Part shown: positions 54,521 through 60,218 of the stretch, in pieces | Layout of the letters: each line of letters begins with the position of its first letter | Numbering within the stretch: the first letter of the stretch is position 1 | Assembly (NCBI GenBank): GCA_030740155.1 | Contig: JASLXV010000025.1 | Location: 63,930-127,929, forward strand | Direction of reading: 5' to 3' | Length of the DNA stretch: 64,000 nucleotides | From: Dehalococcoidia bacterium | GTDB lineage: Bacteria; Chloroflexota; Dehalococcoidia; Lucifugimonadales; UBA3495 | Notes under the pieces: generated by a model | Told to the model about the DNA's origin: nothing | What the model saw: only the letters and a program-made list of their open reading frames with translations | Databases searched by the model: none | Made by a program: the position numbers and the translations under genes

Positions 54521-56143
54521 TCAGCGCCCGCCGCGCTGGCCTCGGCCCCCCGCTCCTGACCGTTGCCGGCCCTTGCGGTCCCGGCGGCCGCCGCCGCGCT
54601 CGTCTACCAGGTCCTCGGCGAACCTGATCTTTCCGGCGTCGGGAGTGAGCACCGGCAGCGAAGGCAGCGCCTCCAGATCCTCGGCCGGTCCATCGTAATC
54701 CTCATCCAGCAGGCCCACGTCTTCAAGGGTGAAGGACTCCAGTTCTTCGACGCTGAAGCCGGCGCCCGGCTCTTCAGGAGCTTCGGCCTCGGTTTCGCGC
54801 GTCACTTCCTCTTCCTCTTCCTCTTGGATCAAAGCCTCGAGGATCTTCTCCTCGTCAAGCTCTGCGTCGGCGGCGCTAGGCGCCTCATCCGACACCGACA
54901 TAGCCTCGAGGGCTTCCTCTGCCGCCACCTTCGTGGCCTCGGTCACCTCGACAACGTCCGCGGCGGCGTCTCCGGCCACTACTTCCAGGTCAGCTTCGGC
55001 GACCGCGCCGGCAGTGGCGTCTTCGGAGGCGGCCTCGGCTTCCGGGACCACCTTGCCCGCGGCCTCTTCCTGGGCCCGTCGCAGACGCTCTTCTCGCAGC
55101 GTCTCCCACTCGGTGAGGCCCTTGATATCCAGCCGCCAGCCGGTGAGCCGGGCGGCCAGTCTGGTGTTCTGGCCTTCTCTGCCGATGGCAAGGGATAGCT
55201 GCCGGTCGGGGACCACCACGGTGGCCGTTAGATCGTCCAGAGAGAGTTCCACGTGGGTCGGCGCCGAAGGACTGAGGGCCTTGGTGATAAACACCGTGGG
55301 GTCTTTGTCCCAGGATACAACGTCGATCTTCTCCCCCTGGAGTTCGTTGACGATGCTCTGTATCCGGTTGCCCCGTATGCCGATGCACGAGCCTACCGGG
55401 TCGATCCCTGGCTGGGTGGCGGTAACAGCCACCTTGCTGCGGAAGCCGGCCTCCCGGGCAATGGCCTTGATCTCCACGACCCCGTTGTACACTTCGGGCA
55501 CTTCGATCTCGAACAGCCGCTTCAGCATATTCCGATGGCTTCGGGATACGATGATCTCCGGCCCTTTGGGTCCGTTGCGCACGCTCACCACGTAGACCTT
55601 CGTGCGCTGGCCCTTCCGGTACCGTTCGGTGGGCACCTGTTCTTCATAGGGCAAAATGGCCTGGGCACGACCCAGGTCCAGGGTGATCGCGCGGCCGGAA
55701 TCGGTCTGCTCGATAACACCGGAGATGATATCACTCTCGTGCTGGAAGAACTCCTGGTAGAGGAGTTCCCGTTCCGCCTCACGAAGCCGCTGTAAGACGA
55801 CTTGCTTGGCGGTTTGGGCGGCAATCCGGCTGGCATTGTGGGGCATCGGCTCTGCCTCAGCCACCTCGTCGCCCAACTCGGCGGTCTGCTTGGTGCCTTG
55901 GGCATCGGCAAGACTGATCTCCCGTGACGAGTCCTCAACGGTCTCGACCACGGTTTTCAATGCATAAACGGCGACCTCCCCAGTGTTGGGGTTCAGCTTG
56001 ACCGTTATATTTTGCTCCAGCTCCGGATTGTCTTTTTTGAACGCTGAAGCGTAGGCCAACTCAATAGCCAGAAGCACCTGCTCTCTGGGCAGGTGGCGCT
56101 CCGCGGCCAGTTGCGTCAGCGCGATTAGAAAGTCGCTTTTCAC
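54521..56143 (-). CDS. nusA: Transcription factor NusA with long acidic C-terminal extension
   Basis: RIAAQTAKQV, LFEIEVPE, AREAG.RSKVAV, GEKIDV, QLSLAIGREGQN.RLAARLTG. Confidence 0.98.
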   Translation of the reverse strand: MKSDFLIALTQLAAERHLPREQVLLAIELAYASAFKKDNPELEQNITVKLNPNTGEVAVYALKTVVETVEDSSREISLADAQGTKQTAELGDEVAEAEPMPHNASRIAAQTAKQVVLQRLREAERELLYQEFFQHESDIISGVIEQTDSGRAITLDLGRAQAILPYEEQVPTERYRKGQRTKVYVVSVRNGPKGPEIIVSRSHRNMLKRLFEIEVPEVYNGVVEIKAIAREAGFRSKVAVTATQPGIDPVGSCIGIRGNRIQSIVNELQGEKIDVVSWDKDPTVFITKALSPSAPTHVELSLDDLTATVVVPDRQLSLAIGREGQNTRLAARLTGWRLDIKGLTEWETLREERLRRAQEEAAGKVVPEAEAASEDATAGAVAEADLEVVAGDAAADVVEVTEATKVAAEEALEAMSVSDEAPSAADAELDEEKILEALIQEEEEEEVTRETEAEAPEEPGAGFSVEELESFTLEDVGLLDEDYDGPAEDLEALPSLPVLTPDAGKIRFAEDLVDERGGGRRDRKGRQRSGAGGRGQRGGR

Positions 56144-56189
56144 CGCAAAGCCCCCTTTGCGAAGTTGCCCGGAACCCGCCTTGGCTCCA

Positions 56190-56219
56190 TCAGCAAGAAA
56201 GCGGGATCACCCCGCTTTC
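56190..56219 (-). promoter_or_regulatory. rimP/nusA-leader-like hairpin upstream of nusA
   Basis: GAAAGCGGG-GTGAT-CCCGCTTTC-TTG; TATACT -10 box at 56243-56248. Confidence 0.55.
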
Positions 56220-56435
56220 CGAAGGAAGCACTATGTGGTCTGAGTATAGCACCGCCCGGTGGCGGTGACAAGGGCCGAGCGACTAGCTCCACGCTCCCCT
56301 CCGAGTCCAATCGCGGACCCGGAGGAGCCGTGTGAGGTGATTGACCGAGCCCCCTGCGCCGAACCTGGCAGCCCGGCGGCGGCGCTGGTTCTCGCTGGTT
56401 CTAATGATGGCAAATCGCGCCGTGCCGCGCGCTCA

Positions 56436-57386
56436 CTACCACCAGATCGTGCCCTTGGACTCCTTCGCCAACTGCTCGTAATCTTTGGTCCACAGTGCGG
56501 TGCTTAGGTATTTCCAGCCGCCGTCAGCCAGCAAGCACACGATGGTGCCCCGGTCCATGCGCTCGGCTTGCCGCAGCGCTCCGTACACCACCGACCCCGA
56601 GGAGATGCCGGCGAAGATTCCTTCCTGCGACAGCAACTCTTTCGTGGTCCTGAAGGCGTCAAGGCTGCTCACCAGCATCCTCGAGTCGAGCAGACTGAGG
56701 TCCAAGATCGGCGGGATGAAGCCCTCATCCAAATTCCTCAGCCCGGAAATGAAGTCGTCGGGCTCGGGCGCCACCGCCACAATCTTGATCCGTGGATCGT
56801 GTTCCTTCAGCCGGCGGGCAACCCCCATGAGGGTGCCTCCGGTCCCCAACCCGGCCACGAACATGTCGACTTCCGGGACGGCGTCCACTATCTCTTGGCC
56901 CGTGGTTTCATAATGGGCCCCCGGGTTACCCTGGTTGCCGTACTGGTACAGCATCAGGTATTGGCTCGGGTTTTTCTCGACCAGGTCCTTGGCCACCTCG
57001 ATCGCGCCGTTGGTGCCCCGCGAGCCGTTGGAGAAGATGATTTCCGCCCCATAGGCATGCAGCAGCTGGGTTCGCTCGGCACTCACGTTTTCCGGCATGA
57101 CCACGGCTACCTTGTAGCCTTTGAGGCGGGCGATCATCGCCAAGGAGATGCCCGTATTGCCGCTGGTGGGTTCCAGGATGGTGCGGTTGGGGGATATTTC
57201 CCCGTCCAACTCCGCTTGCTCTATCATCTTCAAGGCGATGCGGTCCTTGACGCTGCCGGTGGGGTTTTGTCCCTCCAGCTTGACGAAGATCCGCACCTCT
57301 TGCCTGGGGCTCATGCTCTGGAGTTCCACCACGGGGGTGTTGCCGATGGTCGCGAGGATCCCCTTATAGGTCAGCTTGGTAACCAT
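56436..57386 (-). CDS. cysM: PLP-dependent cysteine synthase (CysM-like)
   Basis: IGNTP, KLEGQNPTGSVKDR, EPTSGNTGI, QYGN..N..AHY..TG.EI, GLGTGGTLMG, ADGGWKYLST (as in mycobacterial CysM). Confidence 0.9.
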   Translation of the reverse strand: MVTKLTYKGILATIGNTPVVELQSMSPRQEVRIFVKLEGQNPTGSVKDRIALKMIEQAELDGEISPNRTILEPTSGNTGISLAMIARLKGYKVAVVMPENVSAERTQLLHAYGAEIIFSNGSRGTNGAIEVAKDLVEKNPSQYLMLYQYGNQGNPGAHYETTGQEIVDAVPEVDMFVAGLGTGGTLMGVARRLKEHDPRIKIVAVAPEPDDFISGLRNLDEGFIPPILDLSLLDSRMLVSSLDAFRTTKELLSQEGIFAGISSGSVVYGALRQAERMDRGTIVCLLADGGWKYLSTALWTKDYEQLAKESKGTIWW

Positions 57387-57579
57387 GGTTATATCTATTC
57401 CTTGCAACGCCCGGGCAACGCCTGGCCGCTGGTGACCGAAGTTGGCCGTCATTGGGTTATGCCGGCCGAAGCCCCATAACCTAACCAACCGGGCCAACTG
57501 GATACCCAGCTAAAGTCCGGCGACCCGTGCGCTAATTTCCTTGTCTTTCCGGAATCAAGCTGCCGCAGTGCGGCAATGC

Positions 57580-58422
57580 TCAGTCGGAGGCTACTGAGGC
57601 TGTCTCCGGGGCTCCCAGCCCGCAGAAAATCTCGTAGTCGATCAACTCCGTGACGGTGGGATTGTCGCCGCACAGCGGGCAAGCCTTGTTCCTCTTCAGC
57701 CTCACTTCGCGGAAGCTCATGCTCAGGGCGTCGATGAGGATCAGGCGGGAGCTGAGAGACTCGCCGATGCCCAGCAGCAGCTTGAGGGCTTCAGTCGCCT
57801 GGATGCTGCCCACCAGACCGGTGAGGGCCCCCAGGACGCCGGCCTCGGCGCAGTTGGGGACCATGCCCGGTGGTGGAGGGGAAGGAAAGAGACAGCGATA
57901 GCACCCTTCCCCGGGCATGAAGACGGTGGTCTGGCCATCGAAGATCAAGATACTGCCGTCCACCAGGGGTTTCCCCGCCAGGTAGCAGGCGTCGTTGACC
58001 AGGTAGCGGGTGGCGAAATTGTCCGCCCCGTTGACCACCAAGTCGTACTGGCTTATGATCTCCATGGCGTTTTCCGATTCGAGTCTGGTTTCGTGCATCA
58101 CCACGTTGACGCCGGGGTTGTAGGAATTGATGTTGTCCCGGGCCGATTCCAGCTTGGACCGTCCCACGTCCGCGGTGTGGTGCAGGATCTGCCGTTGCAA
58201 GTTGGAGAGGTCAACCACGTCGAAGTCCACGATGCCGATGGTCCCTACCCCCGCCAAGGCCAAGTAGATGGCCGAGGGCGAGCCCAGGCCGCCGGCGCCG
58301 ACGATTAGGGCCTTGGCCCCGAGCAGCTTCCGCTGGCCCCCGCTGCCGACATCGCCCATGATAATGTGGCGGCTGTAGCGTTTTACTTCATCTGGTGTCA
58401 AAACCACCGGCTTTTCGGCCAT
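57580..58422 (-). CDS. moeB: MoeB/ThiF/MoeZ-type adenylyltransferase (no rhodanese domain)
   Basis: RYSRH, GAGGLGSP, D.SNLQRQILH, DNF.TRYL.NDAC, CYRC, C.EAGVLG, CPLCG; AAGGAGG SD. Confidence 0.9.
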   Translation of the reverse strand: MAEKPVVLTPDEVKRYSRHIIMGDVGSGGQRKLLGAKALIVGAGGLGSPSAIYLALAGVGTIGIVDFDVVDLSNLQRQILHHTADVGRSKLESARDNINSYNPGVNVVMHETRLESENAMEIISQYDLVVNGADNFATRYLVNDACYLAGKPLVDGSILIFDGQTTVFMPGEGCYRCLFPSPPPPGMVPNCAEAGVLGALTGLVGSIQATEALKLLLGIGESLSSRLILIDALSMSFREVRLKRNKACPLCGDNPTVTELIDYEIFCGLGAPETASVASD

Positions 58423-58521
58423 GGTAGGCTTTCCTCCTTGCAATTCCGTTCCGCTTGGTTTGTTTTCTAGGTTCGTTGTCGTTGATGGCGCTGCCTTCGG
58501 GAAGGCGAGCGCGGCCCCGTC

Positions 58522-58576
58522 ACACAAAAAACCTGCGCTTCCCCTGGTGGGCAACCCATTCCGGGCGGGCGCAGGC
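58522..58576 (-). terminator. Attenuator (intrinsic terminator) in the moeB-cysM leader
   Basis: CCTGCGC...GCGCAGG followed by TTTTTTGTGT on the minus strand, ~100 nt before the moeB start. Confidence 0.75.
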
Positions 58577-58605
58577 TTCAAAAGCAACGGCGCGATGCCC
58601 TCCCC

Positions 58606-58665
58606 CTAAGAAGGGGGACAGGTACAAGTGCAGTCGTAGTTGAGGGTGAGTCCGGTGTGTTTCAT
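58606..58665 (-). CDS. Putative cysteine-rich leader peptide MKHTGLTLNYDCTCTCPPS
   Basis: ATG AAA CAC ACC GGA CTC ACC CTC AAC TAC GAC TGC ACT TGT ACC TGT CCC CCT TCT TAG, between a promoter and a terminator upstream of cysteine-synthesis genes. Confidence 0.7.
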   Translation of the reverse strand: MKHTGLTLNYDCTCTCPPS

Positions 58666-58676
58666 CGATTTTCCTG

Positions 58677-58705
58677 AGTCTATCCCCGGTGATTTGGCTT
58701 GTCAA
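58677..58705 (-). promoter_or_regulatory. Promoter of the leader-moeB-cysM transcript
   Basis: TTGACA-17 nt-TAGACT on the minus strand. Confidence 0.75.
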
Positions 58706-58808
58706 GATAGCCGGTTCCAGGCCCGCTACCCCCAGAAGTTCCGAAGTTCCTCGGCTCCCACAAGAACGTTAGATGCCCTTGGGCCGGTTTGGATTCCGCA
58801 GGCCAGCG

Positions 58809-59237
58809 TTACGCTGGCTGCTTGGCCAGCCGCTGGTGGCGTTGCGCCAAATCGGCTAGGCTGATGTTGCGAAGCACGTCGCGGACGGCATCTTCCACCG
58901 ACTTCCAGACCTCTTGCTGGGCGCAAGTCTCGGAAAAAATGCAGTCGTTCGGGTGGATCAAGCAGTCCAATGGAGAAATACTGCCGTCCAGGGTGCTCAT
59001 CACCATGTGCAGATCGATCTCGGATGGGTCCATGGCCAGACGGTGCCCGCCCTGGGGTCCCCGCCGGCTGATCACCAACCCAAATTTGTGAAGAGAGGTC
59101 ATCAGTTGGTCCAGGTAGGCCTCTGGGATACCCTGCTTGCCGGCGATGTCCGCTGTTTGGATCTGGCCCTTGCCGTAGTGCAAGGCTAGTTCCACCATCG
59201 CCCGCACCCCGTAATCCACTTTCATCGGAATTCTCAT
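58809..59237 (-). CDS. Rrf2-family regulator (IscR/CymR-like, three Cys)
   Basis: K.DYGVRAMVELA, IA..Q.IP..YL.QL...L...GLV.S.RGP.GG..LA, LDC.....DC.....C. Confidence 0.93.
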   Translation of the reverse strand: MRIPMKVDYGVRAMVELALHYGKGQIQTADIAGKQGIPEAYLDQLMTSLHKFGLVISRRGPQGGHRLAMDPSEIDLHMVMSTLDGSISPLDCLIHPNDCIFSETCAQQEVWKSVEDAVRDVLRNISLADLAQRHQRLAKQPA

Positions 59238-59269
59238 CGCACCCACCTTCGAACCGCTCCAAGACGCTA

Positions 59270-59321
59270 ATTATAGCATCGGCGGGGGGGTATTTCCAAC
59301 ATTGTCTATATACTTAGTCAA
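59270..59321 (-). promoter_or_regulatory. rrf2 promoter (TGnTATAAT) and IscR-like inverted-repeat operator
   Basis: Extended -10 at 59270-59278; TTGTCTA-N6-TAGTCAA at 59302-59321. Confidence 0.55.
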
Positions 59322-59457
59322 CAAACTCGGCCCAGGTCCGGTCATCCTGGTGACACCGGACAGGCCTCCTGGAACCTGTGTCCCTGGGTGAAATCCAACA
59401 TGTGTCTACCTGTTTCCGCGAGGTGGATTTGCCTCAAACCGTCACCGGTACGAAAGT

Positions 59458-59491
59458 GTCATGCTGAGCCGGGCGCAGCGGCGAGGCATCT
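59458..59491. repeat. Degenerate REP-like unit GTCATGCTGAGC...GCGAGGCATCT
   Basis: Resembles GTCATGCTGAGCGCAGCGAAGCATCT-type intergenic repeats; partial GCGAAGCATCTG also at ~988. Confidence 0.4.
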
Positions 59492-59555
59492 GGGGTGCTG
59501 ATCAGGCAAGACTACCCGAGACGGCGCGGTGTTCGGGCGGTGTTTCGGCAGAAAG

Positions 59556-59966
59556 CTACGGCTGTTCCTGCACCACCAAGCAGGTGCCGAGGCCTTGAGC
59601 GATCACCTTGTCCTGCTGGTCGGTCACCTTCATGTCGGCCACGATAACGCGGCGGCCGGCGCTGAGCACCCGGGAAGTCGCGGTCAACACCCCGTCCTTA
59701 GCCGCCGAGATGAAGTTGACCTTCAACTCTACGGTCACGGTGCTCTGTCCGGGGCGCAGCACCGAATCCGCCGCCCGGTAAAAGGCGTAGTCGGCCAGGG
59801 CTACGATCAATCCGCCCTGGACCACCCCGGCATCTTGCATGAAGGTGTCGTGGATTGTCATGGTGGCGCTGCCCACTCCGTCGGCGCGGAGGCCGGGGCG
59901 CATGTCCAGCATCTTGGCAAAGGGTGCTTCGTACTCTGACTCGGATTCAGGTCTTTCGGTACCCAA
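59556..59966 (-). CDS. PaaI-family thioesterase
   Basis: PF...L.M, GVVQGGL...LAD, TVELKVNF, GRR....D.V.D...K.IA; TTG start with AGGAG SD. Confidence 0.88.
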   Translation of the reverse strand: MGTERPESESEYEAPFAKMLDMRPGLRADGVGSATMTIHDTFMQDAGVVQGGLIVALADYAFYRAADSVLRPGQSTVTVELKVNFISAAKDGVLTATSRVLSAGRRVIVADMKVTDQQDKVIAQGLGTCLVVQEQP

Positions 59967-60218
59967 TAGCAGCGACTCCTGTAAGTTGCCTGTATTTCGC
60001 CTGTAGTTTGATGGATTCGCCGCCACGCATCGATCGTGGGTTTCGCGGCCGGCGTTTCGTCCACCCAGTATACCCTCGGTGGGGACGTCCTGCCACGGAG
60101 ACCGCGGAACCGGGCGCACGGCCCCGCAGTCGAGCAATGGCGCTGCGTGGACTGTTTTGTCTATAATGGGAAAACATCCGGGCCGGCCCGGAAAACAGCG
60201 GTGCCTGCGGACGAGGGA

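Follow-up and report, generated by a model that had tools for sequence, protein, structure and literature searches.

A candidate cysteine-reading transcription attenuator before moeB in Dehalococcoidia and a homologous single-Cys subtype

The interval between the rrf2 and moeB genes in a 64,000-nt stretch of Dehalococcoidia DNA (the whole stretch analysed, hereafter the window) raises the question of whether a short ORF with clustered Cys codons decides if the genes behind it are transcribed. The first-pass annotation of this DNA had proposed that it does, through an attenuator with the 1:2/2:3/3:4 helix layout of the trp, his and leu leaders. On comparative sequence evidence, the element is very probably a classical attenuator of the trp type, in which the ribosome translating the leader controls transcription according to the level of charged tRNA-Cys. 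Its parts and neighbours are:

58809-59246, minus strand: Rrf2-family regulator gene (TIGR00738, over cut-off)
58705-58677, minus strand: sigma70-type promoter, TTGACA-17-TAGACT (sequence and promoter scan)
58665-58606, minus strand: leader ORF of 19 codons, ATG at 58665, Cys codons at -8, -6 and -4 from the TAG stop (58608-58606)
58626-58612, minus strand: segment 1, the last two Cys codons and the next two codons; pairs with segment 2 (duplex -16.6 kcal/mol)
58607-58596, minus strand: segment 2, G-rich, starting within the stop codon; partner of segment 1 or 3
58576-58567, minus strand: segment 3, bottom of the terminator left arm; partner of segment 2 (antiterminator) or 4
58538-58526, minus strand: segment 4 (terminator right arm, 8-bp stem) and T6 tract
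57580-58422, minus strand: moeB/ThiF-family E1-like adenylyltransferase gene (NF004281, over cut-off), predicted first regulated gene
56436-57362, minus strand: cysteine synthase gene, cysK/M subfamily (TIGR01136, over cut-off), predicted second regulated gene

The promoter, the 19-codon ORF with three clustered Cys codons and a terminator about 100 nt before moeB had all been claimed beforehand, and each was recovered. The promoter scan found four promoter-like sites in 57500-59500, the leader promoter included, where 0.6 were expected. Both the -35 hexamer and the CCTGCGCCC of segment 3 are unchanged in 11 of 11 aligned leaders. The ATG stands 11 nt past the -10 hexamer, and the 5′ UTR is presumably only about 5 nt long, making translation near-leaderless. 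The terminator arms (58576-58569 and 58538-58531) are followed by the T6 tract at 58531-58526, the terminator ends 104 nt before the moeB ATG (58422), and its stem covaries among relatives. Folded free of ribosomes, the leader takes up helices 1:2 and 3:4 (-57.6 kcal/mol, z -2.12; 4 of 200 shuffles were equally good). A simple terminator scan did not see the hairpin because its loop exceeds the 8 nt that the scan allows. When the whole genome was scanned for a promoter, a C-x-C ORF, a stop and a T-run, the moeB leader was the single site; given this, and the layout kept across the family, we do not regard the leader as a product of chance. Contigs from four RNA runs of one study (X1-X4, depth 2-9) span the terminator (58448-59254, 58475-58668 and 58437-58596); they carry no ends, strand or level and may be of DNA origin.

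Both genes downstream score over NCBIfam cut-offs as a MoeB/ThiF-family enzyme and a cysteine synthase, in agreement with the earlier claim of cysteine-synthesis genes. As in M. tuberculosis, their products presumably act through a sulfur-carrier route; motif scanning located ThiS-like genes and a JAB-motif gene at other places in the genome. The Rrf2 gene, which mostly adjoins the leader in close relatives, has its own promoter-like site (59299-59270, promoter scan), and the CymR and IscR models score it under their cut-offs. The Rrf2 protein (58809-59246) contains three Cys residues.

A DNA search of 36 family genomes located the leader region in ten, all of which keep the promoter, the start and TAG of the short ORF, the G-rich segment and the terminator; one of the ten has a single Cys codon. 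L012, also returned by this search, proved unrelated. To avoid selecting on the RNA feature itself, 80 moeB loci were chosen by MoeB protein; the closest carry the titles Dehalococcoidia or Chloroflexota. An intact Cys leader with its terminator is present in 17 of the 20 closest loci, the exceptions being L024, frameshifted in the Cys tract, and L028 and L034, which have no leader. The frameshift in L024 (3237-3330) is a 2-nt loss that removes the normal stop and reflects either decay or an assembly error. Among the 60 more distant loci, a clear leader and terminator were seen only at L050 and L056, with L043 and L062 doubtful. By eye, the more distant loci L040, L044 and L054 have a terminator-like hairpin right after rrf2 and no Cys leader.

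An RNA covariance model (R2), built from 26 sequences with the terminator pairs, matches 147 of 151 family genomes in 26 of 27 genera, mostly twice per genome; the four genomes without a match make up one genus of small genomes. Across the order, matches occur in 26 of 151 genomes, and 20 of the 21 best matches in the order's other families coincide with a Cys leader. Across the class, 6 of 150 other genomes match, of which 2 matches are real and 4 (L186-L189) false. Weak matches without a leader, judged false, were L173 (before glutamine synthetase), L181, L182 and L186-L189.

For the comparisons that follow we assembled 76 leaders, each of which was required to have a Cys codon and a terminator. 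Loci L057-L095 and the false matches were left out, four leaders with unclassified downstream genes were set aside, and two alternative-frame duplicates were dropped (78 to 76). In all 76 the start lies 6-16 nt past the -10 hexamer and the stop is TAG, with lengths of 12-27 aa; as in all our counts of relatives, kin are included and the leaders are not independent. The final Cys stands at -4 in 60 of the 76, the codon at -6 is TGT in 44 and TGC in 17, and leaders before sulfite reductase average 3.3 Cys codons (n = 27) against 2.6 before moeB (n = 49), all of these being Cys counts that the selection criteria bias. Residues flanking the Cys codons differ between families; the Cys codons stay. 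In L150 and L171 the usual stop is lost and the ORF runs into segment 2. Taken over the relatives, the ORF and its Cys codons, whose conservation the first-pass annotation had named as the check on its proposal, are kept, and so are the TAG, the spacing and the helices, the helices with compensatory changes.

The pairings themselves were examined in three ways. In the terminator stem of 26 sequences, 94.2% of cells are paired and four of the eight pairs have changed on both sides; none of 500 shuffles reached its covariation score, and slid controls gave 27-49%. Permutation of segments among 69 leaders (seven without the segment-3 motif were dropped) gave cognate duplexes better than all 5000 permutations for 1:2, 2:3 and 3:4 alike, while in the 1:4 control 3246 of 5000 permutations were as good as the cognate pairing. 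Thus all three helices of the proposed layout covary, including the 1:2 pairing claimed just past the stop. In the window, 2:3 (-14.0 kcal/mol) is weaker than 1:2 (-16.6) and 3:4 (-16.3). The antiterminator needs one correction: segment 2 can indeed pair with segment 3, but in a slightly different register from that first drawn, the conserved partner being GCCTGCGCCC (-14.0) and not GCCCGCCC (-12.6).

The third examination placed a ribosome on the leader. A ribosome covers some 12 nt downstream of a codon, according to the available part of a published account (PMC4833913). Our mask ran for 13 nt from the A site, and the transcript ended before segment 4; 68 leaders were used (one stop-loss leader dropped). 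In this model, 2:3 formed with at least 5 bp in 68 of 68 leaders when the A site was at -6 to -4, compared with 42 of 68 at -8, 12 of 68 at -2, none at the stop and 13 of 68 in free RNA; the absence at the stop arises because the mask there covers segment 2. For the window leader, 2:3 pairing rose from 1.8 to 7.8 bp under the mask.

These positions fit the following scheme. Transcription would start about 5 nt before the AUG, and the ribosome would load nearly leaderless. With Cys-tRNA plentiful, it would reach the UAG and cover segment 2, 3:4 would form, and polymerase would stop near 58526. With Cys-tRNA scarce, it would wait at the Cys codons at -6 and -4, covering segment 1 and leaving segment 2 free; 2:3 would form once segment 3 has emerged and while segment 4 is still unmade, allowing transcription of moeB-cysM. 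Untranslated RNA, with 1:2 and 3:4, would be off. Of the attenuation reading as first proposed, the sensing part is supported by conservation, by recurrence before sulfur genes and by a T-box exchange described below, while stalling and read-through are steps that we infer.

Equilibrium folding at full length gives another picture: with the ribosome at the last Cys codon, the terminator wins in 54 of 76 leaders, the window leader included. As the trpL control behaves alike, this test tells nothing either way, and the switch, as modelled, would have to be kinetic and co-transcriptional. A cruder capture measure gave 0.68-0.76 for the window at every ribosome position, that is, no switch, with a full switch in only 31 of 76 leaders; it was a noisy measure, shuffled controls scoring as high as 0.43.

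The element recurs before other sulfur genes. A second copy (L127, G000:C99, about 28577-28755, plus strand) precedes a sulfite reductase-like gene in the same genome; it was missed by a DNA search of this genome and found by the RNA model. It has five Cys codons, and its TAG is changed to TTG, so that the 27-codon ORF continues through segment 2. Second-rank R2 matches lie before sulfite reductase in 19 of 22 cases (this copy, L006 and 17 of 20 further family matches), and other homologues precede TauE, TusA/DsrE and PAPS reductase (cysH) genes. One sulfur operon, L178 (G222:C105), has two Cys leaders, one before the reductase and one before tauE. Selection by sulfite reductase protein across the class gave matches in 92 of 201 genomes; of the 91 genomes other than the window's own, 49 reductase loci were read upstream, yielding 12 Cys leaders (two with U-tracts that look weak by eye), one T-box and 36 with neither. 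In family f81, which belongs to another order, each of the eight sulfite reductase loci has an intact Cys leader and terminator, with different residues flanking the Cys codons. In family f95, L193 (about 1108-1236) has a 42-codon poly-Cys leader before sulfite reductase, with different hairpins and a weak U-tract. The same device thus appears to control sulfite reductase elsewhere in this genome, as part of a small Cys regulon.

The single T-box is informative about the signal. At L210:3420-3671 (minus strand) in genome G327, a T-box (118.7 bits) lies directly before sulfite reductase, in the place that the leader occupies in relatives, and by our own reading has UGC at the specifier position set by the Rfam consensus. 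Replacement of the leader by a T-box with a Cys codon points, independently of the leader, to tRNA-Cys charging as the probable signal. The Cys T-box riboswitch (RF00230) resembles the leader in its inferred signal and output and differs in binding uncharged tRNA directly, with no need of an ORF. Three T-box matches occur in the window's own genome (G000: C85:84468-84730, C85:61425-61685 and C74:52224-52553), two of them over the Rfam cut-off.

Leaders met by separate routes (L035, L056, L157-L162, L169, L179) share the peptide R-x-x-D-D-L-F-H-L-C. Searched for with a degenerate pattern, it turned up 41 times in the order, in 31 of the 301 genomes covered, where the reversed control yielded 2; the window's genome, whose leader belongs to the multi-Cys type, had no match. 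Of 42 metagenome matches, 33 lie in a short ATG-started ORF. As the pattern forces the core residues, conservation was judged at positions outside the core. There, Arg is present in 28 of 31, written with six different codons, and Phe or Tyr in 26 of 31; His was found in 28 of 31 where the pattern allowed four residues. The loci span 28-61% GC. Fifty of 51 distinct leaders of this subtype (L243-L314, with examples such as L158, L169 and L179) have a terminator-like hairpin, and 40 of 51 have a single Cys, at -4 to -6. In the model, a ribosome on the Cys codon lets 2:3 form in 34 of 50 leaders, versus 3 of 50 in free RNA, and helices 1:2 and 2:3 covary. A genome may hold up to four copies (G220).

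The genes behind these leaders encode sulfite reductase, MoeB, PAPS reductase, 1-Cys peroxiredoxin, DUF454 proteins and proteins without a Pfam match. Leaders L295 and L307 precede 1-Cys peroxiredoxin genes, L260 and L283 DUF454 genes, and L259, L261 and L290 genes for lipoprotein-like proteins without a Pfam match. These peroxiredoxin, DUF454 and lipoprotein-like targets may be unrecognised sulfur-starvation genes. Selection at the peptide level beside a lone Cys codon, with R-[FY]-x-D-D-L-F-H-L-C kept through synonymous change, suggests that the nascent chain may strengthen the pause there. We consider it quite possible, if slightly short of an even call, that a single attenuator scaffold in Dehalococcoidia serves two kinds of sensor: several Cys codons in one, and in the other a single Cys with a so far undescribed arrest-type peptide, wired to the terminator, that would amplify a hungry-codon pause or read the cysteine or thiol state in the ribosome. 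The subtype poses the question of whether a nascent peptide can make one codon an amino-acid sensor.

Could the window leader, too, act through its nascent peptide, as an arrest peptide or as a Cys-thiol or metal sensor like CutF/CruR, with the same hairpins transmitting the stall? Ends of the form C-x-C-P-P-T are common in the family, and the homologous subtype couples a conserved, mostly single-Cys peptide to targets that include 1-Cys peroxiredoxin, DUF454 and proteins without a Pfam match. We nevertheless find this improbable for the window. In its type the N-terminal part is unconserved; the Thr and Pro residues fall within segment 1 and are accounted for by its pairing, the -1 codon being always xCA/AAA-like, and they are replaced in other families; and a Cys T-box substitutes for the leader. 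Upstream ORFs of the CutF/CruR type encode an exported nascent protein with a metal motif and precede metal-homeostasis genes; here the ORF has 19 aa and sulfur genes follow. CutF itself, in the description available, is secreted and works on a hairpin at the ribosome-binding site, whereas the leaders of this family have 12-27 aa.

A conserved RNA with alternative folds could also be a metabolite riboswitch or a protein-bound antiterminator in which the ORF is incidental. In 56000-60000, however, Rfam gave no match at E<=5 and no T-box. Conserved bases are confined to the pairing segments, leaving spacer and loop free, and the ORF retains its start, its reading frame, its Cys codons and its stop although the 5′ coding bases have fully diverged. 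We regard such a mechanism as very unlikely. Equally unlikely is a constitutive terminator without any sensing, there to shield moeB from rrf2 read-through or to damp it: plain hairpins between rrf2 and moeB do exist at some distant loci (L040, L044, L054; by eye), and the terminator stays on in equilibrium folding, yet the leader has its own promoter, occurs without an adjacent rrf2 and before sulfite reductase, has a covarying 2:3 helix and keeps its Cys codons. Translational attenuation that hides the moeB ribosome-binding site, which the near-leaderless start and clustered Cys codons would recall from the mycobacterial Ms5788A, is the least likely of all, since the conserved hairpin and U-tract end 104 nt before moeB and both the distance and the sequence from there to the moeB start vary widely among relatives, unconserved.

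We therefore return to trp-type attenuation by tRNA-Cys charging and its place among described cysteine systems. For Rhodobacterales, Brewer et al. 2021 (PMC8632094) predicted the motif uORFC-8-2 before cysS, a uORF that keeps its Cys codons, together with an intrinsic terminator, and proposed that it senses the charging of tRNA-Cys; a terminator-attenuator class for cysteine is thus not unprecedented. Compared by description, uORFC-8-2 differs from the leader in its alphaproteobacterial host, its control of a tRNA synthetase and its tandem Cys codons, and the available part of that paper describes no antiterminator (PMC8632094). Actinobacterial cys/cbs leader peptides, with Cys codons near the stop and cys operons behind them, differ in reportedly having no conserved terminator hairpins (Seliverstov et al. 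2005, PMC1262725, as far as its accessible text goes). The mycobacterial Ms5788A leaderless poly-Cys sORFs are an experimentally tested Cys-codon sensor at several cysteine loci and, in the parts of the report available, hide a Shine-Dalgarno sequence and act on translation, not on termination (Canestrari et al., bioRxiv 10.1101/834739). In our case segment 1 pairs right past the stop with segment 2, and the terminator lies 104 nt before moeB. The same 2020 mycobacterial paper, in the text available, calls uORF attenuation for cysteine undescribed (bioRxiv 10.1101/834739), and the accessible portion of PMC13236596 treats the mycobacterial case only among Cys leaders.

In the literature searched, which covers subscription journals thinly, we found no report of the element in Chloroflexota or of the R-[FY]-x-D-D-L-F-H-L-C peptide; an older survey may hold a prior prediction of the element. 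Lopatovskaya et al. 2010 is said to be a large attenuation survey. The Cys terminator-attenuator class itself has already been predicted; what appears new in the literature searched is the homologous single-Cys, conserved-peptide subtype. The leader family offers a complete, covarying and easily synthesised candidate for a terminator-type switch over a sulfur-assimilation regulon, in a host group known mainly from assembled genomes.

Among characterised systems, the leader is most readily set beside E. coli trpL, with which it shares a short ORF, cognate codons near its end, helices 1:2, 2:3 and 3:4 and an intrinsic terminator; the last Trp codon of trpL stands at -4 from the stop, the offset of the last Cys codon here. 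The his, leu, thr and phe leaders are further classical leader-peptide transcription attenuators. Several traits of this class were found in our element: a conserved ORF, cognate codons, a predicted terminator, mutually exclusive helices and, from modelling only, a matching ribosome geometry. To our knowledge, cysteine was long absent among the amino acids sensed by terminator-type attenuators. Unlike trpL-type attenuators, the Dehalococcoidia leader would sense Cys and begin nearly leaderless, has no conserved Shine-Dalgarno sequence, alternates its Cys codons (C-x-C-x-C) in place of a run, and would serve several operons per genome. If this reading is true, classical attenuation works from an almost leaderless start.
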